The notes under the pieces are model-generated. The model ran no database searches. It had not been told where the DNA came from and saw nothing but the letters and a program-made list of their open reading frames with translations. The translations under genes and the position numbers were made by a program. From Vairimorpha necatrix (Eukaryota), in NCBI GenBank assembly GCA_036630325.1, contig CP142735.1, positions 992,001 through 1,056,000 on the forward strand: a stretch of 64,000 nt of DNA, given 5' to 3'. Below, in pieces: positions 5,901 to 53,127 of this stretch (positions are counted from its first letter, which is position 1; every line of letters starts with the position of its first letter).

Positions 5901-7385
5901 TTAATTTTTAATGTTCTCTTTGAGTAACGAAAAGGCGACTAGAATATCTTCCCATGTATTTTCATAAGCACTCATTACAATGTCAATGTATTGAAAAATC
6001 TCTACAAAAACCTTTATTATATCAAATTTGGCATCCTTGTCACCCACCTCATTTTTTTGGTTTATAATGTCTGCGATATTTGTTAATATCCTGCATAATT
6101 TCGTTTTATTTTCGTTATTTTCCCCGATAATTTTTTCTAATTCCATAATTAGGCATATTTTTATCATGTAGCTGGTATTATTATGTTCATTATTTAAATA
6201 TTTAATAAAAGCTGTTCCATCTTCCGTAAATTTCTTTTTTTGTCCTGTAACTATCATTATATAATTTTCAAAAGCATTAGTACTTTTAGTTAGAACCTTT
6301 AGTCCCATTTTACTTATTAATTCAGACGATTTCAATATTTCTTCGAATAAAAAATGTACTGCAGAGGTTTTGTTTAGATAAATACTTTTAAGAATTCTTA
6401 TAGTCAAATCATTATTCTCAATTAGTTTATATATCAAATTAATCTCAGAATTTTTCACTTGCTTTGTATTCATTAACATTACTATCCGCTTCATTTTTGC
6501 GAACTTTGGTCTACTTATAAATATTTCTTGATTATTTTTTTCATTTTTATAGAGATTTTTTCGATAACAAAATATCTTAGCATTCTCTCTATGTTTGCAT
6601 ATTATAGAACCATATGAATTATTAATTTCAAAAAACGTATAATTTTCATCTTCTTCGTCTATTAATCTTTCCACCTCACTTGTCACTTTGTAATTTTGGA
6701 ATTTTGTTATATCATAAACTTCACTTAATGTAACGAAATCAAATAATTTAAGCATTTGTAAAAGTATCACTTTCTGATATTTATCTCCTGTACAATATCT
6801 CTCTACGTGTACTTCAAATAATTTTTGTAAATCGATTTCAGTTATATCAATTTCATAAAAATAATATATTTCATCGATAGAATCAATGAAAGTATACAAA
6901 AATGGAATGTAGTCGTTTTTTATGCAACTTATCTCATCATTGAATTTATTAGAAAAAATATAATTATATATCCCGCTGTTTTCTTCAATGACCATATCAT
7001 AGTACCATTTGTCGTCTTTTGTATTATAATTTTTTATTCTAATGATAATATTATTATAGTCTGTCGAATTATTTGCATTTTTCGCATAAACTAATATTTT
7101 CGGAGACTTAATAGAGGTCTCATTATTCAATAATATTTTTTTACACTCTTCAAAAGCTTTTACAAAATCATAAGATTTTATTTTATAATTGCTTTTGTTG
7201 TTTTTAAAAATCAATATTTTATCATTATCATATTTTAAGTAATCTATTTCATATTTTTTTCCTAGATCATATTTCATAAATTGTTTTTTAGTTGTTTTTG
7301 TTTTTATGTAGTTATTTAGTTCATGACATTGCTGTTCGGCACTTTTTATTATTAGAATCACTAAAAAAGTATTCGCAATTCGCAT
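5901..7385 (-). CDS. Putative secreted protein, lineage-specific family A member 1
   Basis: Start moved to the ATG at 7385 (GCCCCAATG); signal-like MRIANTFLVILIIKS. Shares ILVY..IIxRIK..YDxII, IYYFYEI..EID and MIKICLIMELE blocks with 38268..40235. Confidence 0.85.
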   Translation of the reverse strand: MRIANTFLVILIIKSAEQQCHELNNYIKTKTTKKQFMKYDLGKKYEIDYLKYDNDKILIFKNNKSNYKIKSYDFVKAFEECKKILLNNETSIKSPKILVYAKNANNSTDYNNIIIRIKNYNTKDDKWYYDMVIEENSGIYNYIFSNKFNDEISCIKNDYIPFLYTFIDSIDEIYYFYEIDITEIDLQKLFEVHVERYCTGDKYQKVILLQMLKLFDFVTLSEVYDITKFQNYKVTSEVERLIDEEDENYTFFEINNSYGSIICKHRENAKIFCYRKNLYKNEKNNQEIFISRPKFAKMKRIVMLMNTKQVKNSEINLIYKLIENNDLTIRILKSIYLNKTSAVHFLFEEILKSSELISKMGLKVLTKSTNAFENYIMIVTGQKKKFTEDGTAFIKYLNNEHNNTSYMIKICLIMELEKIIGENNENKTKLCRILTNIADIINQKNEVGDKDAKFDIIKVFVEIFQYIDIVMSAYENTWEDILVAFSLLKENIKN

Positions 7386-8399
7386 TGGGGCACTTTCTTG
7401 AAAAAAATAAAAATTTCTCTCGAAAGGGATGTCAAGCATAATTAAATTAATTTATATTTAATTTATTTGTACTTCTTTGTTATTGTGGTATTATAATTAC
7501 ATAAACAAACCATTTTGTACTTTATCAATTTTCTCTTTTTGGAAAATAGACCATTTGACCGATCTATTCAAAAAATTTATTTTTTTTTCGATTAAACTCA
7601 AACAAAATTCGAAGGATGAGACGATTCAATGATGACAAGGAAAGTCTTCTTGGAAACATTTAAATAACTACCACCCTGCTAGCTTAAAACCAAAAAAGAG
7701 GGAATACTCTAAAGACGACCAAATATTCTTACTCAAGTCCAATATTTCAAGAAACAAACATCAAATATGCAATTTATTGAATTGTATTTGCTTAGAGATA
7801 GCTTCTCTGGAGTTTTGTAGTTACAATCAGGAAAATAACTTACATCACATAAAATATTAGCTTGTATTGTTGAAGAGTAGATGAGTCTGCACGAAATTGC
7901 ATATTATTGGAGAAACTTTTTTTTTTATATTTGTTTGCAAGGGTTTGTGATAATCATGTCTGCTTTTATTAGCTGATGACTAGTTTATATCTGACAAAGA
8001 GCAATGTTTGGTAACTAGAGTTACAACACGTAATATTCCCTAACATAAAATTAATATTTTGTATTGAATGAGTAAATTTAATTCGGCAATATCTGAATGC
8101 AACATCAAGTATTCAGTATATTTCAAGTACATAAAAACATTTTTTTTTAGACATCAGTACATTTTATGTTATCTGCGAATTAAAAAATTTCGAAAAATTC
8201 CATTTTGCTGTTGATACATTTTAAGATGTATCTAGACCGTATCTTACTATTTAAAAAACGCTCAAAAGACTTCGTATCAAACAAAATTATTTTTTTAAGA
8301 AGATAAAAAAGCAATATAGCAATACTTGTTAAAGACATTTGTTTTTAATTTTTTATCACCTCTAACATACTTCAAAAAATGGTTTTTTTCTTTTATATA

Positions 8400-16335: not shown

Positions 16336-16941
16336 TTATTTTTTGGTATTATCTGATATTTGATAATTGAGTTTAAAAACGTCTGATTCACTTTTAAGTT
16401 TTAAATTATCAATAAATACATATAAATCCGAAGCTTTTATGCTCAAACTTTTCTCACAATATAAATCTAGTTTACTATAAACAATGTTTTTCTTAAACTG
16501 AAATAATTTAGTAGACGCCCAAGAAATAGTACTTTTTTTTTCGTTATAAAAAATAATTTCAAAGAAAAAATTTCTATATTCAATCAAACTAAAGCTACAC
16601 TTATAAAAAAATTCACTCTTCAAAAAATTAATTCGAATTTCATCATCAGTAATTAAGTGTGAGATACTTTTTATTCTTTCATGTTCATTTTTATCAACCT
16701 GCTTTAAAGATAATCCATCATTTAAAACCGAATCAATAATATTTTTAAGATCATTTTGAGCGTAAATTTTATTATACAGCAGACCAGCACCTTTAGATAG
16801 AAAAATTTTACAGTTATATGGAAAATTAGAGTCATCATAAACACCAATGTAGGCGTCACAATAATAATTTTGCTTGATATTTATAAACAATGTCAATTCG
16901 CAATAGGCACAGAAAAAGTTCAAAACTATTCTTCTTAACAT
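16336..16941 (-). CDS. Hypothetical, probably secreted protein, 201 aa
   Basis: Start moved to the ATG at 16941 (GACCCCAATG); N-terminus MLRRIVLNFFCAYC; no recognisable domain. Confidence 0.78.
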   Translation of the reverse strand: MLRRIVLNFFCAYCELTLFINIKQNYYCDAYIGVYDDSNFPYNCKIFLSKGAGLLYNKIYAQNDLKNIIDSVLNDGLSLKQVDKNEHERIKSISHLITDDEIRINFLKSEFFYKCSFSLIEYRNFFFEIIFYNEKKSTISWASTKLFQFKKNIVYSKLDLYCEKSLSIKASDLYVFIDNLKLKSESDVFKLNYQISDNTKK

Positions 16942-19900
16942 TGGGGTCAAAAAATAATAAATTATAAAATGATGCGTAATTAAAAACAAGTTTTGATATA
17001 AAAATATAAAACGATCAAAAATTAATATTTCTTATAATAAAAATTAATACTTAAAAGCTCAATTTTTCTTTTTATAATTAATGTTTTTGTCAATTTAAGT
17101 AAAAAAATTAAAATTCCATTGACATAAACACATCCACAAAACTATTTTACAAAATATAAATCTCAGCAGCTATTTAAACAACATAGGTCTCGTTTTATAA
17201 AAATAATTTATTATAACATATTAAGTAATTTATTATTATTCGTGAATTATGGATTTTCAAAAATTAATTCGAATATAATATCTCAAACAAACTTCCAAAT
17301 GTTAATATCATAAATACACAATTAAAATTATGTATCTCTTAAAACATTAGGTTTTTTATTTTTAAAATAATTTCTTGATATATTCATTCAATCTATATAA
17401 TATTTTATGGATGGTTTTATTGAGTATAATCTCTATGAAAATATTCTCATACTTATAAAAATGTATTTTTGATGTTTTCTGTCTGAAATGATATAATTGC
17501 ACAAAAAAATCCAATTTATATGTAAACAAACACTTTTGATTATATTAACATAAAAAAAATAAGAAATTTACAAAATTATATGTCGAATATTAAAGAATAA
17601 ACCTGCAAATGTTTGAGCTATTTTAAAATAAAAATACTTAAAACAAATAATTCAAATTCAAAAATAGTATTAATTTGAGGTTTAAGATTAAAAATTTATA
17701 TATATTTTATAAATAAAACTAAAATCAGGTCGAAAAATAGACTTTTATGTTTTTAGATAAGAGTTTAAATGTTTATTATCGTATATGAACATATTTCTGC
17801 ATATAAAATTATTACAAATACAAAATTTTTGTGGATTACCTTGAAAAAACTATAAAAATACTAATTTGTGATTGTAATTAAAAATTATATGATATAAATA
17901 ATATATTACATTCAGGGGTTTTCATAATCGAATATATATATTCGTTCTGTTTTATTTTAAAAGTGATTTAATATCGAAATTTTATCAAAAACAATTTATG
18001 AAAATAACATTCTATAAATTTTATAGATATGTACATTTTAATACTATTTTTAAAGTTAAATTTAAATCAATAACATATTTTCATGATAAGCTTCACATTA
18101 CATTAAATTAAAAAAGATTTTGGTTTGATTAATCATAAAAAACTAATTATTCGAAGTTTTAGCAAAGTGCATTTATGCATAAATCAAACAAAAAAATTTA
18201 AATGCGTCTAAGTTCAAAAAAAGAACACATATAGATGTGGGTTCTACAATTTTTAATTTTTTTAAAACTTAACATTTTCCTTATGTGCATGTTTTACAAA
18301 TTTAAATTTCATGTAATCTAAAATATTTGTTTAAATTTAAAGTATAATCTTATTGAAATCTAAGTTTTTACATTACATTAGTTAAGTGTTTTTATTAATA
18401 TTTAGTTTTTAAAAGTTACTTTTACTACGATATATTTGTTTAGATTCGTAATTTATAACTGCACTATATTATTTTCTTTACTACATCATAAGTAATGAAA
18501 TCAAAAAATAGCATAATTAGTCATAAAATAAAGTTTCACTGTCTTTATCATTTGTTATATTTATGATTTCTATACATAAAATATTTGCAAACGTCTAAGA
18601 AGTTTATAAAAACATCCCAACATTATCTTCAGGAAAAGATTATAACAGCAGAATACAATATATAATAGTCACAAGAAGAAGTATTTTAGTAAGAATGTAA
18701 TTTTTCGCAAAAATTTTTTTTTCAGAAGGTTGAAACAAAACTTTAGTTTTATTTGCATAAAAACTATGCAGCACAAGTAAAGGTTCATATCATTGTACAC
18801 ATAATCCTAATTTGAAATTATAATAAAAGCAATATTACAAAATTTTAAATAACATTGTACAGAAACATGCACCTATGAAAAACTTAGGCAATTAAATAAG
18901 CATATAAGCAAAAATGTACAGTACACTTTGACATGAAAAAAAAACTATCACAATAAAAAAACCAATACAAATAAAGACTTTGAATCGTTACACTTGTATG
19001 ACATATGTTTACTGTTTAGTTGAGATAGTATCGTACAATCCCGTTATTTATCTCACCTTTTATAAAAAATTTAGTCATTATAAAATAATATACTTTGGTC
19101 ACATATATAATTTTTTTATGAGCATGAAGAGTATATACATTATAATTCCTTTAAAAATGCCATTTTTTTATGAAATATCATTTATTTTTATAACTGATCA
19201 AAATGCAAACGTCATACAAACATGATCAAACATTAAGACAAATGAGAGGTTACAGATACAATAGATATCAAGATGTATAACCAAAATTTAATTATGTTAT
19301 AAAAATTTTAAACATTTTCAACTGTTATTTTTTCAAAATGACATGTTTTAAGTTATTGTATTTTGTTTTATGCAATTCTAATTAAAAATATGGTAAGTTG
19401 TATTTAAATATATATAGAACCTTATTATAAAGTGCATATAAAGTTGGGCAATTTAAAAATACGTTTTATATCCTCAATTAATTACTTTATATTAATTTGT
19501 TATGTATATCATAATACACTAAGCCAAGGGGTTATAATTTATCATTGAACTCTTGCCATACAAGTGAATTTTTTTATTATTTATTGCGTCAATACTTTTT
19601 TTTTGTGTTTTATAGTTTAAAATGATCAATTTTTTTAAAATTAATAACACATTAAAAAAGCAAATTTCTTTTTTTTCAAATTCATAAAATTATCATGATT
19701 TTCATTAAATACAAAACATGAGAATATTAACGTTTAATTATTTTTTATATAAACACATATTTTTTTTGTTATAACTCAAACACTCGTGTTATATTATAAT
19801 ATTGTTTAATACAGGTTTGATAGATGTTAAAATTTTAAAGAATTTTAATATTTTGTTTTAAGATGAGATTTATTAAGCTGTAAAAATCTATTGTATAATA

Positions 19901-20258: not shown

Positions 20259-20993
20259 ATGTTGTTTGTTATTATGATATTTTCAGTAAATACTTCAAGA
20301 ATGGATTTTCATCAGTTATATAAAAGATCTCTAGAGGCGACGAACATGCCATTTAACAATAGTGAATTGATGTATATCAAGGATAATTTTGATCAAAATT
20401 ATATGACAACACCCTTTAATGCTACTTACAATTCTGAGACTATTAATTATTTTAAATCATTTTATAATAATGCATTTGAACGAGAGATCAGAAACTGTCC
20501 AGAACACTTCGAGTTTAAACCAAAAAAAATTCTTTATAATGAAATTAATTGGGAAAAAATAACGAAAGCTTCAGATGTGGTATTTGATGCTTTGATGTCT
20601 CATGAAGATGTGATAAACATTATATCTATAATTGAAGACACAAATGAACGTATTAATGACTTGAGATATTATTTTAAAGTATTTACAACTAAATTCTTGC
20701 TTAAACAACCGACGAAAAGAAGATTAAGAGAAATTGGTCATCTTTTCGAAATATTAGCGTATCATAGTTATGATTTGATATTTGACTTGAGTTTTTTTAC
20801 TTCATTTAAAAACCCAAAAGAAATTGAAAAACTTAAAAATCTTGTTTACGAGTATATTGATATCAGAATAAATTCATCATGCGATTGGTATATCACACAG
20901 TTGTATTCTGAACAAATGTATTCTAACGATAAAAAAAACAAAACTACCGAATATCAGAATGAGGATGAACAATATTTATATAAAGTATATTAA
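20259..20993 (+). CDS. Hypothetical secreted protein, 244 aa
   Basis: GGCCCTAAATG start context; short signal-like MLFVIMIFSVNTS; intact ORF. Confidence 0.82.
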   Translation: MLFVIMIFSVNTSRMDFHQLYKRSLEATNMPFNNSELMYIKDNFDQNYMTTPFNATYNSETINYFKSFYNNAFEREIRNCPEHFEFKPKKILYNEINWEKITKASDVVFDALMSHEDVINIISIIEDTNERINDLRYYFKVFTTKFLLKQPTKRRLREIGHLFEILAYHSYDLIFDLSFFTSFKNPKEIEKLKNLVYEYIDIRINSSCDWYITQLYSEQMYSNDKKNKTTEYQNEDEQYLYKVY

Positions 20994-22936
20994 CTGATAA
21001 TTTTTTTTTGTTTGCTTAGCATTTTATAAAATTTAATGCCATTTATATAATTTGACGCATTAACATTACAAAATGCTTTTGCTAATTGTAATAATAACAT
21101 TTTGTATATAGATTTCTTTCTTGTAGGTAAATAAGAAATATAATTTTCATTATTTATCTTGAATTTACAAAATACAAGATGTAAAATTAGTCCTATAGTC
21201 TTTACTTAGCTTTCTGGACTTATTCGTACATGCAAATTTAATCGATGTAAAAATTACCAAGAGTTTTAATACTTTTATATTCCACTAATTTAGCATGATT
21301 ATATTTGATTAATAAGCTTAAACTATAATTTTATTGATAACGAAAGTAAACGAATTATACCTATATATAATTTTTAAGTAGGTATAGTTTTTTTTTGTGA
21401 TAATTTGAATTTATGAAAAAACATACACAAGAGCATATTTTATTATTAACGGTAATGTTTTTTTTGTTTCAAAATTTAATAAATTAGAATTTTCTACATT
21501 TTACCCTTAAGAATGTCAGCGACACGCAATCAATTATTATTTATGACGTCAAATTAATAGTTATATAGTCAAAAAAAAATTTATAAGTTTATCCATTTTA
21601 AATAAAACTTAAATTATTTTTAACCTTTGAAAAAAAATTATGAAATATACGTTTTTTTGTAGTATTAAGTATGGCGTAACAGTTAATTAATAGGAAAATA
21701 TATGCTGTTCAGTAAAGTAGAACTTCCATAAATGCAAAAACAATATTTTTCAACATATATTGATTTATTGAAGAAGAGTTTTATTTGTATCAATAAATCT
21801 TTCATATGTCATTTTAGCTTGTAAGTTATACCAAAGCCATTGGTAATAAAAATATTGTGTCAATATTTATAATATATCTCAAACTGTAACATTTCCGTAA
21901 AAATTTTCTTTAAAGTTCTTTTTTAACGGCATCATTATAAATAATTTAAAATTATATTGAATTTTAGATGTTCCCGCACATTGATAAGCCTTAAAATTTT
22001 AAATTTTTTTTTAGGGTTCGATCGCCGACTTTAACACATAAATAAAATTTAAAGATTTTACAAAGATGTATAAATATATCATATGAGATGAACATATATA
22101 AAATTTTATATTTGTGCTGTGATGAAATTTGTATTAAGTACATGTACTAACATGAAATCTACATGTAAAGATCTAGTGTTGAAAATAATGTTTGGATTTG
22201 TGTGTAGAAATACCCAATTGTATATAATAGATGCAACTAGCTTAATATAATGAAATTTACGGAAGGTTCATATTTAAGTTTGAAGTACAGTTATAGCTGT
22301 AAATTTATTCATAAAAATTCATATACATGAGAATCGAATAAAAACAATTTTGAGGTAAAATAGTACAGAAAAATATACGTCGATTGTTTACACAAACATG
22401 AATTAAGCATCTGTTTCTAATACCGTTCTGATTGTGATTTCTAACCCAGGATTGACATTTATAGTATTTACAATTCTTTTAATCTTAAATATGATAATAT
22501 CCTGATGAAAACTGTAATTATGCTTTATGTTCAATTCTATAATAATTTTTTGAGTATTGCTAAATTTTGTTTAACTAAGTAGTTTGTCATTAATCTTGAG
22601 TTTGCACATTTTATAAAATCTCATTCATTAATTTAAAAGATATCCTTTATATTAAGTAATCTTTAGATATTTGTATAGATTTTTACTCGAAAATATTTTA
22701 AGTTTTAACCTGAACCATATTTAAGAAATATTTTACAACTTTAGTTGCGAAATATTTTTTTTTGCATACACTATAATATTGCAATACCAAAGATCTATAC
22801 AAATTCTCTATAGGAAGTTAATACATAAAAATTAAGATACCCGATATAATATCCATGTTTCATTAACACAAAAAAACATTGTGCAAAATGAAATTCCACG
22901 TCTTTATATATTTATGTTAGTATTAAGTTTATAAAA

Positions 22937-25900: not shown

Positions 25901-26436
25901 GCCTGATATTCTTTTGTTTGGCGAAAAAAAGTTTGAAATTTCAATGGTTGAAGTTAGTAGAGCCACTCAAGATACACTTATTATAGTTCATAACGAAAAA
26001 CTAAGAAAATATGGCCTTCTTGCAAATTAATGGGACTATACATTTATCCAAAACAAGAATAGTTCCTATTGAATGACATGAGATGTATAAGTGTTTAAAT
26101 ATCGCAAAATGTACATCAAGGAGCTGGAAAACCAATCCTACCTTGAAGATATATCTAGTTGTTGTAAAGAAGACTTTAGAGTTTGTCTCTTTGGAACGAC
26201 GACGAGGATACGATCAGGAGGATGCAGGAGAAGAAGAAGTGGCTAGAGCTTAAGCGCACTAGCGAATATGGTGATCGTTAAAGAGGTGGTGTCGGAAAAG
26301 AGAAATGAAGCTGAAAAAGTGAAGTTGGAAAACATTTCTAATTCCACAGAAACAAAAGTCTGTGAAGAGGTAATCCCATGAGCGATACCGGTGAAAGCCG
26401 GTCTATGAATATCTAATCTTAATGATAAATTAACTC
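22937..26436 (+). mobile_element. RLE-type non-LTR retrotransposon (R4/Dong-like), near full length, degenerate; 5' boundary approximate
   Basis: Broken frames give PNWKAA (approx. 24081), DFRPITC, DVKKAYDS, GILQGDSLSPLLFVL, HLLFIDDFKL (RT), then CPHC..TVDHLATKC..RHNEVV zinc finger, KPDI and KLRKY (restriction-like endonuclease). The 3' end ...AAATTAACTC is shared with the copy at 50974. Confidence 0.9.
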
Positions 26437-26790
26437 TTTAAATTTAATTCACAAAATTAACGTACCATCTTCAAACAATTTTGTTCTTAAATCATTTAAA
26501 ACATAATATAGATCTAATATAGGTATTACCCCATTTCAAAGAATATTACGTGAAGTATTAAACATATATTTTAAATAAACCCGCCATATTGACCTTAATT
26601 TTACAAGGTATTATTTTCAAAAAAATCTCAATTTAGAGAATTCAGATTTTCTAAATATATAAAAAATTTGCTTTCTGATGTTTCATTCTATATTTTTATT
26701 CCTTTTTAAAAAAAAGTAAAAACATGAAATGTCACAGTTAGTGGTGGAACCAGTTAGTAGGGGGAACCCTAAAAAAATTTTAAAAAAAGA

Positions 26791-26825
26791 CCGTCATGGG
26801 AATCGAACTTGGGACTTCTCGAAGG
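26791..26825 (-). promoter_or_regulatory. tRNA 3'-half / Pol III B-box-like motif in the left TIR
   Basis: Minus strand reads CCTTCGAGAAGTCCCAAGTTCGATTCCCATGACGG, then TC and a T7 run. Confidence 0.55.
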
Positions 26826-26965
26826 AATATAATCACAATGAACGACTTTTTTGAGACGGTTCAAAATTCGTCCTAATTATATTATGGGGTATATTTCGAG
26901 TAATTTTATATAAATTTGGAGGGAAAAGAAATAAAAAAATAAAATAAACAACTTTTTTAAAAAAT

Positions 26966-28344
26966 TTATTCGTTATCAAGCAATCTTAGATCTCTAGTGT
27001 AAATTTCTTTAGTAATAAGCAATGGATCAGCTTCATTAGATAATTTTACTTTATTAAAATGAAGTATATTCATTACAATATATACATCGACATCCAAATG
27101 TTCGTATAGAGGAAGCCTTCTAGTACTTTGATTATTGTCTAAATATGGTCTTATAAGAACCCTATCTCCCAATTTACATTCATAGAAGTCATTTTTCCAC
27201 ATACTTCTTTCAATCATTCTATTAGCAGCATTTTCAGTATTAAACCGTGCAGATTCGTGGTAAATTTCATTTAAAAAAAAATTTGCATTGTTTAAAGAAT
27301 ATTGTTCTTCGTAATTTACGACGTTATTTTCTTCAAAAACAAATTCTTCTCCTCGTTCTTCTTCCTCGTTTTCAACTTCGTTATTATTTGCAACCGAATC
27401 TATTATATCAGTGATTCTAGATCCTTGCATTATGTCTTTAATGGGCTTACCAAACATCAAACTAAATGTAGTTTGTTTAGTTGTTGAATGCCTTAAGTTG
27501 TTATATGCCCAGTTAACTTCTTGGCGTACTATGGTCCATTGCCCTAAGATATTCTTCGACCTCAGAGTAGATGCAATCATCCATTTAATTGTTTGATTGC
27601 ATCGTTCTAACTGTCCTTGTATCCAAGGACATCTAGCTCTTCCTCTTACATGTCTTATTTCATACTTTACACATAAATTCACGATATATTGATTAACAAA
27701 TTCTATACCGTTGTCGGTATGAAGTATAAAACAAGATCCAAACGTATTGAATAGTGTTTCAAAGGCATCCCGCACACTAATGCCAGTTTTGTCACGCAAT
27801 GGAATCGTCCAACAGAACTTGGTAAATGAATTCACTACTTTAAGTAACCATTTATATCCATCATTGAGTTCGTGATACAATCGAAGATCAATCAAATCAG
27901 CAATATACCTTTCTCTAGGATATTTTGAAATGATTGGTCTAATAACTGGTCTAGTTATTAGATTTCTTCTTGCTTGACAAATATCACAACTTTTCAAAAC
28001 TCTCAGTACTTCGTTTTGAGTAACGTCGTATACTTTTGATTGTAACAATGGATACAATCTGTAACGCTTTGATGTCCATTGGAAACATGAATCAGTTTGA
28101 TGAAATCCGATTTCAAACACTGCTCATTGGGTGTAAAGAATCTCAATGATCTATATTGATCTACTTTAAACCTCACAGTTAGTTCAAAATTTCCATTGTT
28201 GTTTTCTTCAAACAACATGAAACGTTCAGCTTTTCTTTTAAAATTTTTACGATCAACTTTGTCCAACAACGTTGGTGGCAGCTGATCATATAATAAAAAA
28301 TTGTAAACTTCTTGTCTTTTATCATTGTTCATTTTTATTCTCAT
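26966..28344 (-). CDS. Integrase-like transposase (HHCC zinc finger + rve DDE core), one frameshift near 28070
   Basis: ORFs 28003..28359 and 26966..28120 join as HVSNGH/RYRLY...CDIC, then ADLID, HTDNGIEF and QGQLERCN (D, D, E). ATG at 28344 follows GGGG; ATG at 28332 is an alternative. Confidence 0.82.
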
Positions 28345-28443
28345 AACCCCACAAAACAAAAAATTATTTACTATAAATTGAAGGATAATTTTACTGTAAT
28401 TTCTTAATAATATTTTTTTTCCTTTCTAAGTAAATTTTGTTCA

Positions 28444-28486
28444 CCTTCGAGAGGTCCTGGGTTCGATCCCCCCAGAGCTCGTTTTT
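28444..28486 (+). promoter_or_regulatory. tRNA 3'-half / Pol III B-box motif in the right TIR
   Basis: CCTTCGAGAGGTCCTGGGTTCGATCCCCCCAGAGCTCGTTTTT: variable loop AGGTC, T-arm with B-box GGTTCGATCCC, then T5. No A-box or 5' half visible. Confidence 0.7.
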
Positions 28487-30385
28487 AAGGTTCCCTCTAC
28501 TAACTGCGACATGAAATAATAAATTTTAGCCGGTATCATAATTTTCAGCTCTAATTTTCAACTTCTAATTGTTAAGAGTCTAAAAAAAGATTTTGATTTA
28601 TATTGCAACAAGAACAAAGCTATAATATATTTTTTTTGTTATTTCAGGGTTATATATATTACACAAAAAGCTATAAACTACATTAAAAAATTATTTAAAA
28701 TAAATGTATTAATTCACATGACATAATTTATAGTATCTAACACTATATAAAACATTTCATCTCTCAATTACACATTAGTAATATGATAATCGACGTTTTG
28801 ATAAAAAATTATAAAAGATTCTATATCACAATCTAAGTGGATTTTTTATTTAAAATAAAATTTTGTTGCGATGATTTATTTTTATTCAATTAGCATAATC
28901 AATATTAAAATTCATCTAAAATTACTTTAATTTTGATTTTATAGTACAATTTGTAATCTTAATTAAACCCGTACAGCCCAATAATATTAATATAAGGCTA
29001 AATTTGTTGATAGACACATATAAGTTTAATAGTATTCTTATTGGACATACCAATAAGCGAGTATCTAAATGTTTGAGTTGATCCGATAAATAGTATAGTC
29101 ATAAACTTCCAAAATATTATAATTAATTCTTTATACATTAACTCAATTGGCGGACATTTATTCAATTTGCTAAAAATAGTTTGAGTTTTATGTTTTTCGT
29201 ATATGTGATTAGTGTTTGTAAATACTAACATCAAATTTATTGTTGGAATTTCTTATTTTTAATATCATTTATACAAATAAAAAGTATTTCCTTTATTCTC
29301 TGTCCATTCTCTCACGGGGGTATAAATTTAAACAGCACGCTTTTTAATTTAACTTATTGTTTTATTATATCATTCACAGTTTTAAATGCTATATTAGAAT
29401 TTTAAAGTCATGTTTATTTTTTTTTTGTATAACCGATCCAAAATGTAATCTAAATTGTGATAAATTTTTTAGACCTATCCTAACAAAATTTTATGTACTA
29501 ACAACCATCTTAAATGCAAAAAATAGATTGTTTTTATTTAACTTTTAAACCTTTTGTTTATCTCTAAAAAAAACTTTCCATCTTGAAATTTTTATATAGA
29601 TTCAAGTTTTGCACCAATTTTAACTTCTACTGCTTTTGCATTTTTAGCTTCAAAAATCAAAATTTAAAAGTAGAATCACTTAGGACAGTGCATATAAAAA
29701 TTATGCTATAATAATAGATTATTTCTATAGTAATTAATACAAAATTCTAACCATTTTCATGAAAAAAAAATGCATTTACAACAATAACATAAAATGTTCT
29801 AAATTTTCTACATTAGTCTATAACACCGCAGGATAACATATAATATATACAAAAAATATGAAACAAACATATAGATAAAGAAACATCGGCATTAAATTTG
29901 GTTTTCATGAATTAATTTAATACTTTAGTCAATTTATGAAGGAGTAAATATGATATTGCAAACCAAATTATACATCTGGATAAAAGGGATTTAATACATT
30001 TAGCTTTTCATACTTGGTTCGAAATGTTTTAGATATCTACGTCTTTTACTTTATTTTTATTAGAACGTACAAAGTACAGTCAAAATTTTTGAGATTATAA
30101 CGCCAGTAGAAATAATATTTTATTACAGTATCTTATAAAATTACATCATCTTCAACGTTATGTTGGATATTGACTATATTTTATCATAGCTTTAGGGTTG
30201 AAGAAGCATTTAATTTACTACGTATACAAAATTAAGACTACAACCAAAAAACAAATTTATTTAGCAATTCACATGATTAAGTATATAAATATCTTCTTTC
30301 AATTCATATTAGAATAATTATTTTAAAATTTATTTTAAGAAAAAATATAGTAATTAAATATACAACAAATAATGATTCCTTCTTT

Positions 30386-31530
30386 CTAATACAAAAATGG
30401 ATTAGATCCCAACTGATGAGTCGCAAATAATGAAGTAAGACCTACAAAAAACAATGTTCCTGGATTATAATTAAACGTTCGCCCTACGTTACTGACTTTG
30501 TCATATATTTTCGATATATTATCCTGACTTCTGATATTATCATATTCTTGATTTTCTATGCTCATGTTTTCTTTTTTTACTGCATCCCCCTTTTTTAATG
30601 TTGTAATTTGCTTTTCTTGATTGTATATAGATTTATTTACTTTTCTATTAGTATATTCATATTCTTGCATATTTTTTACATTGTCATTGATGTTTATAAG
30701 CTCTTTAATCTTAATTTCTGCAATATTATTTTCGTGGACGTCGCTTTTAAAATCTTGGTTTTTCGAACTCGTTTTCTTTTGAATTTTATTTTTATTGTTT
30801 TCTTCATTAATTTTTTTGCCTCCTTCGGTAGAAATATTCTTCTCTTTTATTTTAACCTGCTTATTATCTTGATTATGTTCTCTTGATAATTCTATTGTAT
30901 TGTAATTGGATGTTTCCCCCACTATACTAAAATTAGTTGCGTTAAGATCACTAATTTCGTATAAATCATCAATAAATGGTTGTAGTTTATCTTTTTTAAA
31001 AACTTGAGAAATAAAAATATACGTTGAATCTACTTTTACTTCAATATATCTATTAATAATATTTCTAAATTTAAAAAGATCTAATTTTTCATATTGGAAT
31101 TTATACATAGTAGAGTTTGAAATAATAATCTCGTTTGTATGGCAATTTCTTTAATAAAATAATATACTGATAAATCTTTGCCCCCTTGAGGTTTTGTTGG
31201 TTTAATATCCCAGTTCTCAGAACTTAAAAATTCATAATATAAATAATATACAAAGTCTTTTTTTTGAATTTCATATTCAGCCCCATTGAGCGCTCTTGGC
31301 CAAGCAAGTTGCCTCTTCATAGGAAATTTCATATTATTCAAAATCGATTCGAAGATTAATCTTGAGTATTCTAAGCACAAGATGTTGTTTATAATTATAT
31401 TGTTTATGGGATTATATGGTTCCCGGAATATATCTTTACATTCATCAAAGTCTCTCTTTATTTCTTTAGATGTATTAATGGCTATTAATAATTGAATATT
31501 TCCCATAATTGTTAACAGAATAAAATACAT
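30386..31530 (-). CDS. Putative surface/secreted protein with C-terminal hydrophobic tail, split by one frameshift (approx. 31110-31150)
   Basis: ACCCACATATG start at 31530; signal-like MYFILLTIMGNIQLLIA; overlapping ORFs 31081..31584 and 30386..31108; K/N/E-rich low-complexity region, then GTLFFVGLTSLFAT. Confidence 0.7.
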
Positions 31531-34500
31531 ATGTGGGTATAGCGAAACTTTTATAAAAATATCAAAAATTTTACTAATGTTCAAAAAAACATATTCATAT
31601 CGGTTTTTATATTCAAATAATAAGAATTTACTTAAGTGATTTAATAATTATAGGTATGTTACTCATTAATTTTTTATATTGATCATATGGAAATAAACAT
31701 TTGATCGAAGATTACAAATTAATTTCAATAACACTTTTTTTTCATAGGATTGTTCACATTTCTCTAATGGTATTTATGGCAAATTAAATATAATTTTTAG
31801 ATAATTTAAAATATATTGTAGAACAATATTTTTTACATGTTTTCTGCATATATTGCATTCTGTTTAAGCAAATATTTTTGATTTAATTTAAAATAGTAAC
31901 TAGATGTGATTTACTAGATTTCAGCCATCAAAATAGAAATATAGTAATTCCTCACAAAAAAAGCAGTATGAATATTTATGAACAAATATGTAGTAGTATT
32001 AACAGAGATAACAGTGATCATAAAGTTACATAGAATATATATTTGTGATTTTTAATGCCTGAAGAATACACCGATTTTGTATGCATTGACTAACAAAATT
32101 ATATTATGTATCATTATGTCCGAGAGTATATTGTTTAATATTATTTTTTCTTATTTTAAATAGACACAAAAATTTAGTTTTTAGCAATTTTTTCTCAAAC
32201 TCATTTCATATTGTTTTTATAAGTAAAAAAATTGAATTAAGTTTTTCTTAATTTACAAAGATGTAGCTTGAATTTATTTTTTATATGTAAAGGATTAATC
32301 CATCCAAAATCTGGGTATTGTTATATTGCGTTTCACATAACATTTTTTTCAAATCAAGTGATAGAATGTAATCCAAAGACATATTTTATCTAGAAAGTAT
32401 CTCAAGTTGAACTAGATATATTCTTTAATTGCGTTAAGTTTGCAGTGCTGATTAAAAATAGCTTATGTGATTTTTTGAATAGTGTATTTTAATATTTACG
32501 TATAAAACATAAGACATTAGTTAAGTATGTTATATTATATAGTATTCTAATCAGACAATCTGGAAAGAATATGCCTTGCTTAATAGTAGAAACAAAGACA
32601 TTAAGATAATAAAACTTGCATTTTAAAATAATTTAATCAACCATAAAAGTTGGTATTTATTATATAGTTTATTATATGTAAATATACAAAATTAAATATC
32701 TAAAACCAAGTTAAATTATATATTACTATGTACAACTTATAGATTTGAATAAGAACAACATATTAGAGGCTTTAATTTCGTTTAAAACGTTGTTATATTT
32801 TGATATATATTAGAGTATTATTAATTTATTTAATATAAAAAAAATTTAAAAACTGTATTTGTGCAAATTCTATAAAAACAAAGAAATAGAAGATTAAATG
32901 ATTATTTTAGGTATTTTTGTATTTAATAAAAACAATAATAATAATCTAATATTTTTGCATCAACTAAAAAAAATTTAGTTTGGTCAATACACGACAAAAA
33001 AGAATTTAAAAATTTATTTAGTGCTTTACTTATAAAAACTTTGGATGTAAACAAAACAAGATAAACAAAGGGTTATAAACATTCTAACTTAAATCTTGAC
33101 TGTTTAAGCCTAACTCAGTTTTAAATGTGTTTTTCATGAATATTTTGGTTTTTACATAACTGTTAGTATTTAATGGTTGTTATAAAATTAGATATAGGAC
33201 ATTACAATAAGTTTTTAGAAGAAGCAATACATTACGGATACAATTTTTTATACTATGGTTAAATTACTGTATTTAGATTTTTTGTAAGGTTTCCTAAATA
33301 TTTTTTAATTAAAATATGGTTTTAAAAAACATGTTAAACGTGCTAATAAGCATAAAGTTAGTTTTAACCATTTTAGTTAGATTGTAACGACTATATTTAG
33401 GTTGGCTCATATATGGTTCTTTAGATATTTAAATTATTAGCTTGAGTGTGGTCTTACATGTAATACAAAACAGAGCCGAGCACAGGTATACTGCTTAAAT
33501 CGTTTCAATACTATTTTTAAATTATTTTAGCGAGTATTTTAGAACGACGTACTTTACAACAAAGGGGTTATAAAGACCAGAGTTTTAGGTTTATTATTTT
33601 TATCGCAAGAGTAATAAATTTGAGATAAAAAAAGTAAAACACAACTATCTATTTGCATTTTACATAAGAACACACCAAATAAATACCTCGAAGTGTTTGG
33701 ATAAAGATTTTTCTAATATAGAATATCAATTATAGCTGTAAAAATAAGAAATATATATATATGAGAATTGCAATAAAACAAACTCTTATATGATCAAATT
33801 AATAAAAAATTATTCTGACTGCGTATTTATTTGATGTTGTTTCATACTAGTGAAAACAACTTTTATTACTTCTTATATATTTACTTTACAAAGAATTGTC
33901 AAATACAAATATTCATAAAGTCTAAGTATAAAAAAATATCTTTGAATTTATATTATTTTAAAACGTCTAAATTTATGTTAAATACAATCGAAATATAATA
34001 TCTTAAAAATTACATAATCTCCTACATACGAAAATGTTTTAGCGTATCTAAAAACCTTAAGTGTTATCAAGAAATTGGCTTTCCATTATTATATTTCTAT
34101 GTATATGTGCTTACAGGAATTTTAATATTTTTCATAATGTCTCAATTCTTCTACTAAACTAAGTTTATGAGTTAATGTATCTGTGCTATAACATGCATGA
34201 ACTTATTTCTCATGTCCTCTTGCAGTTATTAAATACATTTTTAAAATAAACCTACTTAATAAATTTTTATAAAGAGCGATAAAATTAGCGAGGTCATGTT
34301 AGATTATAACCCATAAATACCGCATTCGTTAGGCATTAATATTATGAGTAAAGCATAAATATCCTACCATCCTGCCAAAAATTTAATTTGAAAAGAATAT
34401 TTTCAAAATAAAAAAAATATATTCATTCAATGAGATATATATGTATGTTTAAATATAAAAGTAAAAATTTTTTAGTGCTTATGGAAAATTATTTAGTAAC

Positions 34501-37500: not shown

Positions 37501-38267
37501 TCTTTGATGGTTTTCTGTTGTTCTTATGAGGGTTTAAATTGAATCAGATTTATTTCGATATCTATACATATCAAAAGTATTTAAACATAATTTATAATCT
37601 AAAAGTTATATAAGGATAAAACAATTAAGAAAATGCAATCTTTGTAATCTATTAAAAAATATATTTAATGATTATTAATATTATTTGTCACAAATAAACA
37701 TTAATTACTAAATAATTTACTAAAAGGAACATTTAAAACAAGGTTTTTATCATCATTATTTTCACATAAATCTTAATATAAAAATAGGCTGGCTTTTAAA
37801 ACTACGATAGTCATTAGTTAATTGTTTGTGCTTATTATATCTTCATTATGTAAGTTGCTAAAACATTTTAGCAATTATCGCCTAAAATACTCAATTGCAG
37901 GTGAATATAAAGGGAGCAAAAGACATGAACAAGTGTAAAACACTATTTACCTCAATATTGTTTGTATTTCGAAAAGTCAATAATCGTCTTGAGTGTTGAA
38001 AACAAATATCTGATTTCTTAAAAGCAGTGAATACCGACGGTCAGGTATGTTGACCTCATACGTTAACATTTTTAGTTAATTCGGATTGCAAAGAACATTT
38101 ACTTAACGTAAACTATAAATTTTATACTAAAATTAAAATAAAATCTATGATTACTCTCTTAAAAAAAAAACCATGAAAACTATTCTATAAAATTTTTAGA
38201 AAATCTTTGACAGGTTTCCAAATTAGTTTTTTACGTGAAATTAAAATTTTTTCAATTTTTACCCCAC

Positions 38268-40235
38268 ATGAAAATTATTCAAGTTCTTTCTTCAATAGTA
38301 TTAGTCTACTCTTATAATTATGAGTACCTATATAATAATGTGAAGAATACTATAATAAGAAAAATAAAAGAACAAGATTTTTATATGATTTATCATAGTA
38401 AACGCTATTTGAGAGTTATGATCAATTTTGATGCAGATAACAATATTTTAAGAGGAAATATAACAGAGGATGTGTCTCAATCAGAAAATCAATTTTCACA
38501 AGATTTCTTTATTGCACGTGCCGTTTTCCTCGATCCTTCAAATATAGCTGTTGAAATCGAAAATCAACTAAAGAGAACTGGCAAAATTCTAGAAACTGAT
38601 TTTATTGTTTTAGTATATAACCATCATGATTATAATAAATATAATGTAATGAAGGATTTAATTGAGGAAATTAAGAATTTAAATATAAAAAAAAACAGAA
38701 CTTTTACAAAACTACATTACGAATACATTATTAAACAAAATTGTGATTTTGAGAAAATTTTATCAAAAGCAAAATTCGAAAAAACCTGTAATAATGTAGA
38801 ATTAGGAAATTTCGATGTGCCCATTCATCATGTTCGTAAAAACTATAGAAATTATGTTAACTTTAGCATTGACACTGCGAAAATTTGTTATTTTTTTGAA
38901 ATAAGTTACAATGAAATCGACGGAAATTACTTATATAAAAAGTTTATAGCCACAAAGTTGACCCGTAATAACTATTACAAAGATATACAGAGAGGGTTAT
39001 ATTTATTACATAATTTTATAAATAAAAAAGAAAGAGATTTACATCCACAATCAAGTGCATTAAAGTGCACGTATTATAGCATTAAATTTGATAATAAAAA
39101 TTTTATAGAATTACATAAAGAAAATGGAAAAATAATTTTTAACCAAAGAGGTGTTAATTATAGTTATGCTCTACAAAAAAATGAAATGAAAGAAATTGAA
39201 TCAACTTTTAAAAAAATCTCAGACATACAAAATGGTCTAGATTTTATTAAGGTTGAATTATTTTTTGACTTACTAGTGAATAAAAATGAAATAAAAACAA
39301 TTCTTCATAATATCCTCAACAAGCCCGAATCCGCTATAAATTTAATATTTATTCATTTATTACTTTTTGATGGTGTAATAACCGAAAGTGAATTAAAACA
39401 ACTGAGAAAAAATTTTAGGATACATGAAAAAAGAAGAACGTTCTTTAATGTTTTGAAAAACAAACCATTAAATCATATAGAGATGATTTCTCAATCGGCA
39501 AGTGATATGTTAAAACTCTGCATTTTCATAGAAGCAGAAAATTATATGAATGAAAACGATCTGGATTTTGATTCATTATTCTATAAAATTAGAAAGATTG
39601 GTAAACAGATCATCAAACATGAATTTAAAGAAGTAGGATCCTATAAAATTAATCATTCATTAAAAACAAAGATTGATTTAATGAAAATTTATGATGAAGT
39701 TTATTATCATTTGGATGACATTATAAACGTAAATGATGAGTTTGCAAAGATAGTATCCGAGATAATGTGTTTATTTAAGGGCAATGATAATTATTATATA
39801 AATGAAGTTAATTACAAAGGAAATCTAAATGAAATTATGAAGCCATTTAAATATAAAGAAGATTTTATCGAAAGAACTAATAAAGAAATATTAAATAAGT
39901 TGGAGATATATTCCAACGACAAAAAAATAAAAAAAATAATTGGAATAATACAGAAATCACCATTGAGAGAAACACTTGATGAAATAATAACAGAATCTAA
40001 AAATAAAAAAGATATAAATATATTTGATGAAAAAGAAATTGAAAATATAATGTCAGAGTATATTAGAAAAGGAAACAAAGAAATTGAAAAAATATTTAAT
40101 GGTAAAAAAATTAAAAAATTCATAACTATCAAAAATGAAGCATTAATTAAAAAGTATAAAAATAAATTATATGAAGATTTTAAAGATAAAATAACACTTA
40201 TCATGCGTGAAAACATAAGAAAAACTTTTACTTGA
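38268..40235 (+). CDS. Putative secreted protein, family A member 2, with charged helical C-terminal extension
   Basis: ACCCCACATG start at 38268; signal-like MKIIQVLSSIVLVYS; motifs IVLVY, IEEIKNLN, YEYIIKQN, ICYFFEISYNEID, SAINLIF and MLKLCIFIEAE align with 5901..7385. Confidence 0.88.
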   Translation: MKIIQVLSSIVLVYSYNYEYLYNNVKNTIIRKIKEQDFYMIYHSKRYLRVMINFDADNNILRGNITEDVSQSENQFSQDFFIARAVFLDPSNIAVEIENQLKRTGKILETDFIVLVYNHHDYNKYNVMKDLIEEIKNLNIKKNRTFTKLHYEYIIKQNCDFEKILSKAKFEKTCNNVELGNFDVPIHHVRKNYRNYVNFSIDTAKICYFFEISYNEIDGNYLYKKFIATKLTRNNYYKDIQRGLYLLHNFINKKERDLHPQSSALKCTYYSIKFDNKNFIELHKENGKIIFNQRGVNYSYALQKNEMKEIESTFKKISDIQNGLDFIKVELFFDLLVNKNEIKTILHNILNKPESAINLIFIHLLLFDGVITESELKQLRKNFRIHEKRRTFFNVLKNKPLNHIEMISQSASDMLKLCIFIEAENYMNENDLDFDSLFYKIRKIGKQIIKHEFKEVGSYKINHSLKTKIDLMKIYDEVYYHLDDIINVNDEFAKIVSEIMCLFKGNDNYYINEVNYKGNLNEIMKPFKYKEDFIERTNKEILNKLEIYSNDKKIKKIIGIIQKSPLRETLDEIITESKNKKDINIFDEKEIENIMSEYIRKGNKEIEKIFNGKKIKKFITIKNEALIKKYKNKLYEDFKDKITLIMRENIRKTFT

Positions 40236-41703: not shown

Positions 41704-42665
41704 GGCAGTCTGGTGGCCAAAAATCCCTTAAAAGGAATTTTTAAAAAAATCACCCCAAAAATGAAAAGTCAAGAGGAAAAAAATAAAAACTTAAAAATCA
41801 TTTTAATAATTTTATCAAACAAATTCTCTTCAAAATTTCTTCTAAGCATAAATCTTAACAAAGAACTCTTTATTAATTTTTTTGTTCTATGCCTTATGGA
41901 AGTTTCACTTTTAACAGCGCTCCAATTACCTTCGATAGTATTAGTATGGCATGAATTATTTTTATTAACAAATTCTTTTGAATGATTAACCGTCTTATGT
42001 TGTTGAAAAATTGAACACAACCTAGAATATGAAGAGAAGCAATCACTATGTATGATAGATTCTAGGTTAACATATTTTTTTTAAAAGTTCTTCTAGTGTA
42101 GTTGCTCTTCTATTATCAACAGGAACAAACACAATTTTTCTTTGAGGTGTTCTTTCTACCATTCCGAAAATCCAAACTCCTTCTACCCATGGCCTCTATG
42201 GTATTTTAATTTACCAAACTTACTTTCATCTATTTCCACAACAATCCCAGGTCCTCCTATTATACCTGTTTCGACGTAAACAGAATTTTCGATGGAATTT
42301 ACTGTTAAAGAAATGATTTTTCTTACACTTTTAATGCCAATTCCAAGAAATTCCGCAATAGTTTTATACTTTACATTAACAGACCATGATTTAATAATTA
42401 ATAACATAGTATTAATTCCAAGCTTGTTATTGTAGAATGGAGTGTTTTTTAATAAAGACCATTTACTTCTACATTTAGACCAAGTACATCGAAAAATAAA
42501 ATTTTCATTATATTTTTTACTTATAGAACCACATTTTATACATGATTTGCTTGTTTTTTCAATATATTTTAAAAAAATTTCAAAAAGTTTTTCCTCTTGA
42601 CTTTTCATTTTTGGGGTGATTTTTTTAAAAATTCCTTTTAAGGGATTTTTGGCCACCAGACTGCC
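41704..42665 (-). mobile_element. Merlin/IS1595-type DNA transposon, 962 bp, with perfect 78-bp TIRs
   Basis: 41704-41781 (GGCAGTCTGGTGGCCAAAAATCCC...GAGGAAAAA) is the exact reverse complement of 42588-42665; ISXO2-like transposase inside; no TSD visible. Confidence 0.93.
41769..42608 (-). pseudogene. Merlin transposase (Zn-ribbon, HTH, DDE) with two compensating frameshifts
   Basis: ATG at 42608 after CACCCCAAAA; CIKC..CTWSKC, VEIDESK, VWIFGMVER, HSDCFSSY, TVNHS, HTNTIEGNW. One base missing at approx. 42187 and one extra in the A8 run at approx. 42075-42082. Confidence 0.85.
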
Positions 42666-47800: not shown

Positions 47801-48491
47801 TTTATATTGACATAATTACAATGTAAATGATATACATCTCTTTTCAACCAATTAGTTTAAAACAAGCAAAGACAAAATTCCAAAGAAGTTTTGTTTACCA
47901 TTAACAGGGCAAAAATTTTTCTGTAAAGTTTGCTTTCTAAAATTATAAGAGTCCCATTCGCTCTTCAAGGTGGTATATTAAGGTATAAAATTAAGTCTTG
48001 GGAACACTTAAATTCAAATTAAAAATGAAGGTTTTCATAGACTACACATATGTTAAACAATAATTTTTAAATCTTATATTATGAGGATTCAAAAATATTT
48101 ATTTGGTCCAAATAGTTTAACTGAGAGTTTCATAGTGAAATGAGCAAATCCAACATTATACTATTAAGTTTATTTATTTCCTCATTTTTACTTTTTAGTG
48201 TTATGTATAAATCTTTGCTTCAACTAAGTGTATGTAAAATAATATTGATACAATTTAATTCTCTGATACAATATCCTGCCATATTTTTTTCTCCGTAGGT
48301 AAGAAATCCTTGCATATTCACAAAATTGCCTAAAAAATTTGTATTCAGGCATATGACCATTAATTTATGAATTGGATTCTTTCAATTGACAAGATACATA
48401 AAGAGAAAAATTACGTTAGCACTATGTTGCTTACAATATATTCTTGGATTAGAAAAACAAAGCATTACATATGTCTTCTGTTCTAATATCA

Positions 48492-48607
48492 ATTACGGCC
48501 ATATCTATTGTAAAGCACCGGAACTCGTCAGCTCTCCGAAGTTAAGCCAGTAAGAGCCTTGTGAGTACTGAGATGGGAGACTGCTCGGAAAAGCAGGGTG
48601 CTGTAAT
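48492..48607 (+). rRNA. 5S ribosomal RNA (dispersed copy)
   Basis: ATTACGGC...GCTGTAAT terminal helix I; conserved GGCCATA, GCACCGGAACTCGTC, TCCGAAGTTAAGC, AGTACT..ATGGGAGAC and GGTGCTG; ends in a T4 Pol III terminator. Confidence 0.93.
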
Positions 48608-48892
48608 TTTATTGAAATTTAAGATTTATAATTATGATATTATTTTCATTGCTCTTATTCTGTGAAAAGAAAATTACATTATTTAATTTTTTCTTTGCTA
48701 ATGTTTCTTATGATATATAGGGGTCCTAGAAAAAGTTGTTGGTATTTGCTATTTTTTAACTTTATTTAAAACCTATTCAGCACAATGCTATGGTAATTTT
48801 TTTTATTATTCTTCTACATATGCATCTAGTTTAAGTCAAAAATATTGTTGTTTCTATATTTAACTACGTCGTTCTCTATCAGTGTATTGTTA

Positions 48893-52884: not shown

Positions 52885-53127
52885 AGATTTATTAAGTTAT
52901 CTAAATGTATTATCTTAAAATAATACACAAGATACTTACAAATAAATGTTATAATAGCGGATAATATATTAAGACGTTAATGAAGCACCAGATAAAAATA
53001 AGTCGAAAAAAGATGAACTATAATGAAATACATAATGTTTATTAGAAATAAATGCTAAAAGGCATTAAAAAAATTTATCGAAAATAAAATGCGCGGTTTT
53101 TATTGGAAGTCAAAATCCTATTAAACA

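Follow-up and report, generated by a model that had tools for sequence, protein, structure and literature searches.

The 64,000-nucleotide stretch of Vairimorpha necatrix DNA considered here (GenBank assembly GCA_036630325.1, contig CP142735.1, positions 992,001 to 1,056,000; hereafter called the window and numbered from its first letter) carries a 1,782-bp cut-and-paste DNA transposon at 26730-28511. The element contains a transposase gene of the Ginger2/TDD type between two terminal inverted repeats (TIRs), and the inner part of each TIR holds an outward-facing piece that resembles the 3' half of a tRNA gene and runs into an oligo-T tract. The initial annotation had described such strings at both ends of a Ginger-like transposon; they are indeed present, each lying inward within a genuine pair of TIRs, and what is borne out is their likeness to tRNA. 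The assignment to Ginger was also supported and could be narrowed to Ginger2/TDD, based on TGTNR termini, a 5-bp target site duplication (TSD), TIRs of 68-96 bp and a lone HHCC + DDE integrase. The coordinates of all parts of the element are collected in Table 1.

The ends of the transposon are reported as 26730, where TGTCACAG/TGTCACAGTTAGT starts, and 28511, where ...CTGCGACA/...ACTAACTGCGACA closes, so that the termini read TGTCA at the left and, on the minus strand, TGTCG at the right, both following the TGTNR pattern. The 5-bp duplication lies at an AT-rich target and was checked on this single copy. A repeat finder returned a terminal inverted pair of 25 nt (26751-26775 and 28482-28506, 92 % complementary) as well as an inner inverted pair of 43 nt (26783-26825 and 28444-28486, 72 % complementary). 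In a gapped alignment the TIRs measure about 96 bp on the left and about 68 bp on the right, and CCTTCGAG marks the exact inner limit of their likeness in either arm. The motif CAGTTAGTRG..GGAACC is found in two tandem copies in the left end (26730-26768) and once in the right end; its tandem arrangement may represent a duplicated transposase-binding site.

The transposase gene runs along the minus strand and is split between two frames that overlap, 28003-28425 (140 codons from stop to stop) and 26966-28123 (385 codons). The 385-codon piece contains the integrase core rve (PF00665, E 2.8e-10), and the family profile matches the integrase structure of prototype foamy virus (PFV) with an E-value of 4.1e-13. 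Taken together, both pieces span intact relatives of 458 and 463 amino acids at full length in the alignment. Residues D79, D137 and E173 of the DDE core lie within conserved blocks, and the frameshift falls between the two His and the two Cys of the HHCC finger, which thus flank it on either side. PF17921 is carried by a related protein, P0002. Neither a reverse transcriptase (RT) nor an RNase H was found in the element, nor any further open reading frame (ORF) with a family match. Of 953 candidates in a protein search with the 385-residue piece, 15 reached E <= 0.001. They include relatives from Nosema granulosis, from Vairimorpha necatrix at 55 % identity and from Dictyocoela muelleri at 69 % across half the length. 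A 40 % relative from Octopus is recorded as "KRAB-A domain-containing protein 2-like", and one Dictyocoela relative bears the name SCAN domain-containing protein 3. The two best protein matches are intact and lie on contigs of 1,817 and 1,930 nt, approximately the size of the element.

According to the available part of PMC2836005, Ginger hallmarks are TGTNR termini and an H2C2 + DDE transposase, Ginger2 TIRs are about 50-180 bp long, and TSDs comprise 5 bp in TDD-4/5 and 4 bp in metazoan Ginger2. The termini, TIR length, TSD and lone HHCC + DDE integrase of the element agree with this description. The GPY/F motif, a Ginger1 feature together with YPYY, was not seen by eye in the C-terminal GDRVLIRPY... 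region. PMC3575427, in the part available, places the SCAND3/KRBA2 integrase core within GINGER2, and the accessible portion of PMC5751038 lists Ginger-type candidates in Anncaliia algerae, meaning that the superfamily is already known from microsporidia. Judged by its structure and the names of its relatives, the element appears to fit Ginger2/TDD, of which it is a new and very small family member. Two other classes were considered and rejected. An LTR (long terminal repeat) retrotransposon or solo integrase remnant does not agree with inverted repeats, integrase as the sole domain and the lack of a TGG beside the acceptor complement, while a tRNA-derived short interspersed nuclear element (SINE) does not agree with a 3' half that is present alone and as an inverted duplicate inside TIRs, together with a TSD and a transposase. 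The initial annotation had furthermore mentioned tRNA-like sequence in some Ginger TIRs, for which we found no backing: PMC2836005, PMC6839031 and PMC3575427 do not use the word "tRNA" anywhere in their main text (0 occurrences), and the available part of PMC3845634 mentions tRNA only as a SINE criterion. Among the titles listed for TIRs with a tRNA-derived B-box or TFIIIC, or for tRNA-like MITEs (miniature inverted-repeat transposable elements) and RNA polymerase III (Pol III), nothing was on point.

Further copies were sought in four sequencing runs (the public runs X1 and X2, and X3 and X4), whose contigs were aligned to 26400-28900; 40 of the 192 differences in X1 and X2 are listed, and the statements on individual differences below refer to these. 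The stretch is matched by 64 contigs of X1 and 32 contigs of X2 at identities from 80 % to more than 99 %, and long contig pieces over the element are about 95-96 % identical to it (23 differences in 567 nt and 39 in 864 nt). Matches from X3 and X4 were limited to short AT-rich pieces below 90 % identity. The X2 contigs depart from the window exactly upstream of TGTCACAGTTAGT, where they read ...GTATTATA, which confirms the left boundary and reveals another insertion site. One X2 contig holds one extra base behind 28070, where the window copy shifts frame, showing that the window copy was recently disabled and that the family has in-frame copies. The transposon family is therefore multicopy, with near-identical copies lacking the frameshift in related samples. 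One X1 contig joins 27638 to 28025 and skips 386 bases of the transposase gene, which suggests that the family has internally deleted, non-autonomous derivatives. The right flank of the window is nearly unchanged in X1, which may represent the same or a very close organism and so would not be independent of the window. No contig of the runs joins across the element, and hence no empty site was seen. In a metagenome scan, five distant loci (24-36 % identity) were detected, none with GTTCGAWYCC or a tRNA; these are perhaps retroelements and carry little weight. Viral contigs contained no relative by protein or by TIR pattern, and the right TIR translated as an ORF gave no candidate in the protein collection.

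To place the inner TIR parts in the tRNA register, the G preceding TTCGA was taken as position 53. The plus strand at 28448-28486 then reads CGAGAGGTCCTGGGTTCGATCCCCCCAGAGCTCG followed by T5; on the minus strand, 26821-26782 gives CGAGAAGTCCCAAGTTCGATTCCCATGACGGTC and then T7. The right arm can be divided into TCGAG (39-43), AGGTC (44-48), CTGGG (49-53), TTCGATC (54-60), CCCCC (61-65), AGAGCTC (66-72) and G (73), directly succeeded by the T5 run; the left arm has the same length of 35 nt before its T7. The B-box GGTTCGATCCC lies at 28460-28470 in the right arm and its counterpart AGTTCGATTCC at 26799-26809 in the left arm. Both arms are copies of one ancestral sequence and so represent one event, not two. 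The 24-nt block they share occurs in the window only in these arms and gave 0 matches in 100 shuffles. For the strict B-box GGTTCGAWYCC the window has one occurrence where 0.04 are expected, at least one being found in 4 of 100 shuffles, and GTTCGATYCCC with up to one mismatch is present three times against 0.29 expected, two of the three being the TIR arms. The third near-match to the T-loop motif, at 22007-22030 (+), consists of a T run followed by AGGGTTCGATCGCC, and TTTTTTTAGGGTTC is common to it and the spacer of the left TIR; a repeat that would pair with it did not turn up, and the near-match at this site is probably due to chance.

Comparison with databases was used to assess the likeness from outside the window. 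When 47 nt from the right arm were compared by BLAST with phage records totalling 2.3 Gb, 35 records matched, and 20 of the 25 matches listed lie inside annotated tRNA genes, comprising among those listed tRNAs for Arg, Pro, Gly, Thr, Asn, Asp and Ile. The left arm gave one phage match, not in a tRNA. The 21-nt block common to both arms has a single exact match in 596 Gb of prokaryote contigs, which falls inside an ARAGORN-called archaeal tRNA in the same register, from the 3' strand of the anticodon stem to the T-loop. Both arms and the archaeal tRNA can be aligned over 35 nt without gaps, ending at the equivalent of position 73, where the T run starts in both arms. One could argue that the inner TIR is an ordinary subterminal transposase-binding sequence in which a GGTTCGA-type motif happens to lie beside a T run in AT-rich DNA. 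Such chance or convergence is in line with the absence of any Rfam or default ARAGORN tRNA call, with BLAST E-values that are all at least 0.3, and with the archaeal tRNA matching at only 5 of 14 positions outside the 21-nt block; by our own estimate about 4 random pattern matches are expected in 596 Gb, so that one match is not significant, T runs are common at 75 % A+T, and a strict B-box would appear by chance in about 4 % of 64-kb scans. Against this, the likeness spans three consecutive features (3' strand of the anticodon stem, AGGTC-type variable loop and T-arm), and in both arms the T run begins at exactly the canonical distance. The 20 listed BLAST matches and the only exact contig match fall, in the right register, in tRNA genes, a class that occupies very little of the databases. 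We therefore regard a purely fortuitous origin as unlikely.

The tRNA-Pro identity suggested for the pieces by the initial annotation is putative; the same B-box is found in Ala and Ile tRNAs as well. Both arms agree with the B-box pattern GGTTCGANNCC and with the published microsporidian consensus GWTCRANNC; this looser consensus occurs in the window at chance frequency (16 against 15.25 expected). In the available supplement of PMC5499648, GGTTCGATCCC is the B-box of Nosema ceranae tRNA-Ala, tRNA-Ile and tRNA-Pro (3 of 36 rows) and B-boxes starting with AGTTCGA are found in 7 of 36 rows, so that the A at position 52 of the left arm is a natural variant.

Lone B-boxes bind TFIIIC in yeasts, and the two arms could likewise contain working TFIIIC sites, comparable to the extra TFIIIC (ETC) sites or boundaries formed by tRNA genes (tDNAs) in yeast, that shield the element or tie it to Pol III loci. 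The consensus fit of both arms and the identity of the right one to N. ceranae tRNA B-boxes agree with such a function, as does the distribution of differences among the run contigs. Within the TIRs these affect the spacer (26779, 26781, 26782), the acceptor part (26793-26797 and 28472) and the length of the T run behind 28481, with none in 26798-26829 or 28444-28471, which comprise the T-loop with its B-box and the CCTTCGAGA-GTCC block. This hints, from an incomplete list and small numbers, at a conserved block of about 30 nt, extending beyond the B-box that it contains. That the B-box was kept while the rest of the TIRs diverged holds only in part: the 11-mer differs between the arms at 2 of 11 positions and the inner pair as a whole by 28 %, which is no significant excess of conservation, while the 9-mer CCTTCGAGA with the adjoining GTCC, which has no B-box role, and the terminal 25 bp show conservation that is no lower. 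The loose consensus stands at chance level, the nearest Pol III gene found is a 5S gene about 20 kb away, and PMC5499648, in the part available, raises the possibility that microsporidian Pol III is recruited without A- and B-boxes outside tRNA genes. From the sequence, a TFIIIC or Pol III role of the TIR pieces thus seems improbable, and service as TFIIIC sites has to be judged the same way. Ty1 and Ty3 integrases, members of the same superfamily, use the Pol III machinery, and it is conceivable, if still more doubtful, that the element brings along its own landing pads for Pol III factors, with one lone TFIIIC-binding B-box per TIR acting as chromatin shield or integrase tether. This would reverse the usual arrangement, in which the element seeks host tRNA genes, and, if the B-boxes do bind TFIIIC, DNA transposons would have a previously unseen route to the Pol III machinery.

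No working tRNA was detected at either end. ARAGORN at default settings found 0 tRNAs in the 64-kb window and, when its threshold was relaxed as far as -ps80, still called nothing in the element, and Rfam E-value searches with the element, with each arm and with a 38-nt piece allowing truncation gave no match to the tRNA model (RF00005); the sole related Rfam match is a 13-nt tmRNA T-arm with an E-value of 5.7. The left T-stem, CCAAG against CCCAT, pairs at 1 of 5 positions, the arms diverge most in the acceptor strand by changes that are not compensatory, and folds of both arms are no better than those of shuffles (z -0.28 and +1.07). Inward of either arm no A-box (TRGYNNANNNG, 30-60 bp upstream of the B-box) was seen by eye, and no TATA-like upstream promoter was recognised by eye inside either arm. 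The absence of an A-box and a tRNA 5' half, noted earlier, stands for the right arm. In the left arm a 6-bp acceptor-like complement lies at tRNA distance, not significant in itself: ARAGORN reports the unit at 26787-26862 (-) only at -ps75 (75 % of threshold), where 98 hits in the window indicate noise, the 76-nt fold has z = -2.05, does not form a cloverleaf and is no better than that of 5 among 200 shuffles, and X2 variants in the 3' strand of the unit are unmatched by listed changes in the 5' strand. If this 5' half were real, a whole tRNA gene would have been captured at the left end, with only its outer half copied to the right. Both ends might also be thought to make short outward Pol III transcripts, or small RNAs resembling tRNA halves, that end at the T runs, as a B-box followed by T5-T7 at canonical distance in both arms would allow; given the missing A-box and TATA-like promoter, the destroyed left T-stem and folds no better than shuffles, this is very improbable. 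The TFIIIC insulators, targeting signals or outward Pol III RNAs envisaged by the initial annotation are left unsupported, though not refuted, by the lack of an A-box, the broken left T-stem, the non-compensatory divergence, the missing tRNA-model match and the absence of a tRNA gene from the 64 kb.

The window additionally contains a Gypsy-type LTR retrotransposon at 57681-61702, whose two LTRs (TGTGG...CAACA) measure 168 bp each and show 100 % identity, with a 1,084-codon ORF encoding protease, RT, RNase H and integrase. This resident Gypsy looks recently inserted; the 5 bases flanking its two LTRs do not match as a TSD. One base after its 5' LTR it shows TGGCGACAACGC, resembling a primer-binding site (PBS). 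A derivation of the transposon from this Gypsy element was considered and is ruled out, because the two integrases are only 23 % identical (over 120 amino acids) and the PBS is unrelated. More generally, the TIR pieces could be the relic of a PBS from an LTR-retrotransposon ancestor, in which a tRNA 3' portion faces outward beside a TG...CA terminal repeat. The geometry indeed equals that of a PBS beside a 5' LTR, for which the resident Gypsy provides the canonical layout (LTR ending ...CAACA, a C, then the PBS-like sequence), Ginger integrases are related to those of Gypsy, and the origin of TIRs from inverted LTRs is discussed in the available part of PMC2836005. However, a TGG as complement of CCA is missing and a T run is found instead, pointing to genomic tDNA; the likeness reaches over about 35 nt up to the anticodon stem, far more than a usual PBS, the terminal segment measures only about 25-40 bp, and the resident Gypsy has a PBS unrelated to the TIR piece and an integrase only 23 % identical to that of the transposon. 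A PBS origin is thus very improbable.

The explanation we favour, with a probability of roughly 0.6, is that of a compact Ginger2/TDD-type transposon whose TIRs hold the decaying 3' half of a captured tRNA gene and not a working signal. The integrase would cut at the TGT...ACA termini and generate the 5-bp target duplication, and the inner half of each TIR would be a fossilised tRNA-gene 3' half (positions of about 36-73) together with its trailing T run. Because a T run and not CCA follows, the source would be genomic tDNA and not a mature tRNA. Most likely, one end acquired the fragment in a single capture and the other received a copy of it during extension or homogenisation of the TIRs; it would now be carried along as subterminal TIR DNA that decays under AT pressure. 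The surviving B-box and CCTTCGAGA-GTCC block may be kept by chance or through contact with the transposase, and a role of the block as a subterminal transposase contact is possible. Several points weigh against this explanation. Every phage BLAST E-value is at least 0.3, so that the weight of this search lies only in the enrichment for tRNA annotations, and the block without listed differences, next to an acceptor part and spacer that vary, may fit constraint and possibly B-box function. The history of capture and copying is itself putative, and the placement in Ginger2 as opposed to another integrase-type transposon follows structure and the names of relatives, not phylogeny. If the tRNA piece is only a fossil, it records the growth of TIRs by capturing and copying host DNA.

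Table 1. Coordinates of the transposon parts in the window, with strand and basis of each call.
Feature	Position	Strand	Remarks
Left TSD copy TGAAA	26725..26729	.	Read from the sequence; same 5 bases after the right end
Left terminal TIR part, begins TGTCA	26730..26768	+	Inverted pair (92 %), alignment, X2 contig boundary
A/T spacer	26769..26788	.	On the minus strand starts with the T7 run (26782-26788) after the tRNA-like piece
Left tRNA-like piece CCTTCGAGAAGTCCCAAGTTCGATTCCCATGACGGTC	26789..26825	-	Inverted pair, motif scans, tRNA alignment; T-stem unpaired
Possible tRNA 5'-half vestige, left end only	26826..26862	-	GAACCGTC complementary to acceptor-like GACGGTC, 74 nt downstream; non-significant
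Transposase gene, Ginger2/TDD-type integrase, HHCC zinc finger + DD35E core	26966..28344	-	Two frames, one frameshift near 28070; start Met at 28344
Right tRNA-like piece CCTTCGAGAGGTCCTGGGTTCGATCCCCCCAGAGCTCG	28444..28481	+	About canonical positions 36-73; sequence, B-box, phage BLAST, tRNA alignment
T5 run	28482..28486	+	Directly after the position-73 equivalent; Pol III terminator-like; T6 in X2 copies (T inserted behind 28481)
Right terminal TIR part, inward on the minus strand TGTCGCAGTTAGTAGAGGGAACCTT	28487..28511	-	Inverted pair and alignment
Right TSD copy TGAAA	28512..28516	.	Read from the sequence

The surroundings of the element are AT-rich, with a G+C content of 20-35 % in the window. 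A lone 5S rRNA gene at 48491-48609 (+), recognized by Rfam with 89.8 bits, is the sole gene of Pol III type detected in the 64 kb and the only match of the whole window at the Rfam gathering threshold. At 52458-52928 (-) and 53128-53598 (-), a short reverse-transcriptase fragment (RVT_1, E 3.9e-11) adjoins an ORF whose C-terminal motif is EB1-like; the pair is probably a further decayed retroelement and a neighbouring host gene. No Pfam match at E <= 0.001 was obtained for eight ORFs of 157-666 codons, among them 1651-2364, 5901-7439, 16336-16989, 20259-20993, 30386-31584, 38235-40235 and 42183-42656; these may be typical fast-evolving microsporidian genes or spurious in AT-rich DNA.

Compared with known Ginger2/TDD elements, the transposon shares the TGTNR...CA termini, TIRs of tens to about 180 bp, a 5-bp TSD like TDD-4/5, the AT-rich target, the single HHCC + DDE transposase without RT or RNase H and the SCAND3/KRBA2-like relatives. 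It differs in its microsporidian host, in the tRNA-gene-like inner half of each TIR and in its size of 1.78 kb, as Ginger2 elements reach 2.4-3.8 kb and Ginger1 elements 2.6-7 kb according to the available parts of PMC3845634 and PMC2836005, respectively. It therefore represents a fully delimited, near-intact Ginger2/TDD-type element in a microsporidian that is unusually small.

Within the same host group, the available part of PMC4405373 (He et al. 2015) describes Nosema MITEs with TGT termini and 5-6-bp TSDs that were left as a "new unknown superfamily". They agree with the element in host group, terminal TGT and TSD length but are non-coding. In its supplement file 3, as far as available, copies of the MITE NbN4 start by eye with TGTCGCAG, 8 bases that are also those of the element's right terminus, while no sequence in the available supplement has the CAGTTAGTAG terminus motif of the element beside a B-box. 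It is plausible that the element is a candidate for the type of autonomous partner of the Nosema MITEs with TGT termini and 5-6-bp TSDs. The same file, in the part available, contains the N. bombycis MITE NbT19, which by eye has a tRNA-like segment near one end with A-box-like and B-box-like motifs; the main text of PMC4405373 never mentions tRNA. NbT19 and SINEs have tRNA-gene-derived sequence in a mobile element in common with the transposon, and NbT19 shows that this recurs in Nosema transposons. They keep the 5' half with, by eye, an A-box-like TAGCTTAGTGG, whereas in the element only the 3' half is common to the TIRs, is present as an inverted duplicate and moves as DNA.

A consensus B-box without an A-box is likewise a property of ETC sites and tDNA boundaries in yeasts; here, the predicted motif differs in lying inside the TIRs of a mobile element, embedded in what appears to be a longer, decayed tRNA 3' half. 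With the Gypsy PBS, finally, the element shares a tRNA 3' portion that faces a TG...CA terminal repeat, from which it is set apart by a T run in place of the CCA complement, a likeness over about 35 nt, its occurrence at both ends and an element that moves without RT.

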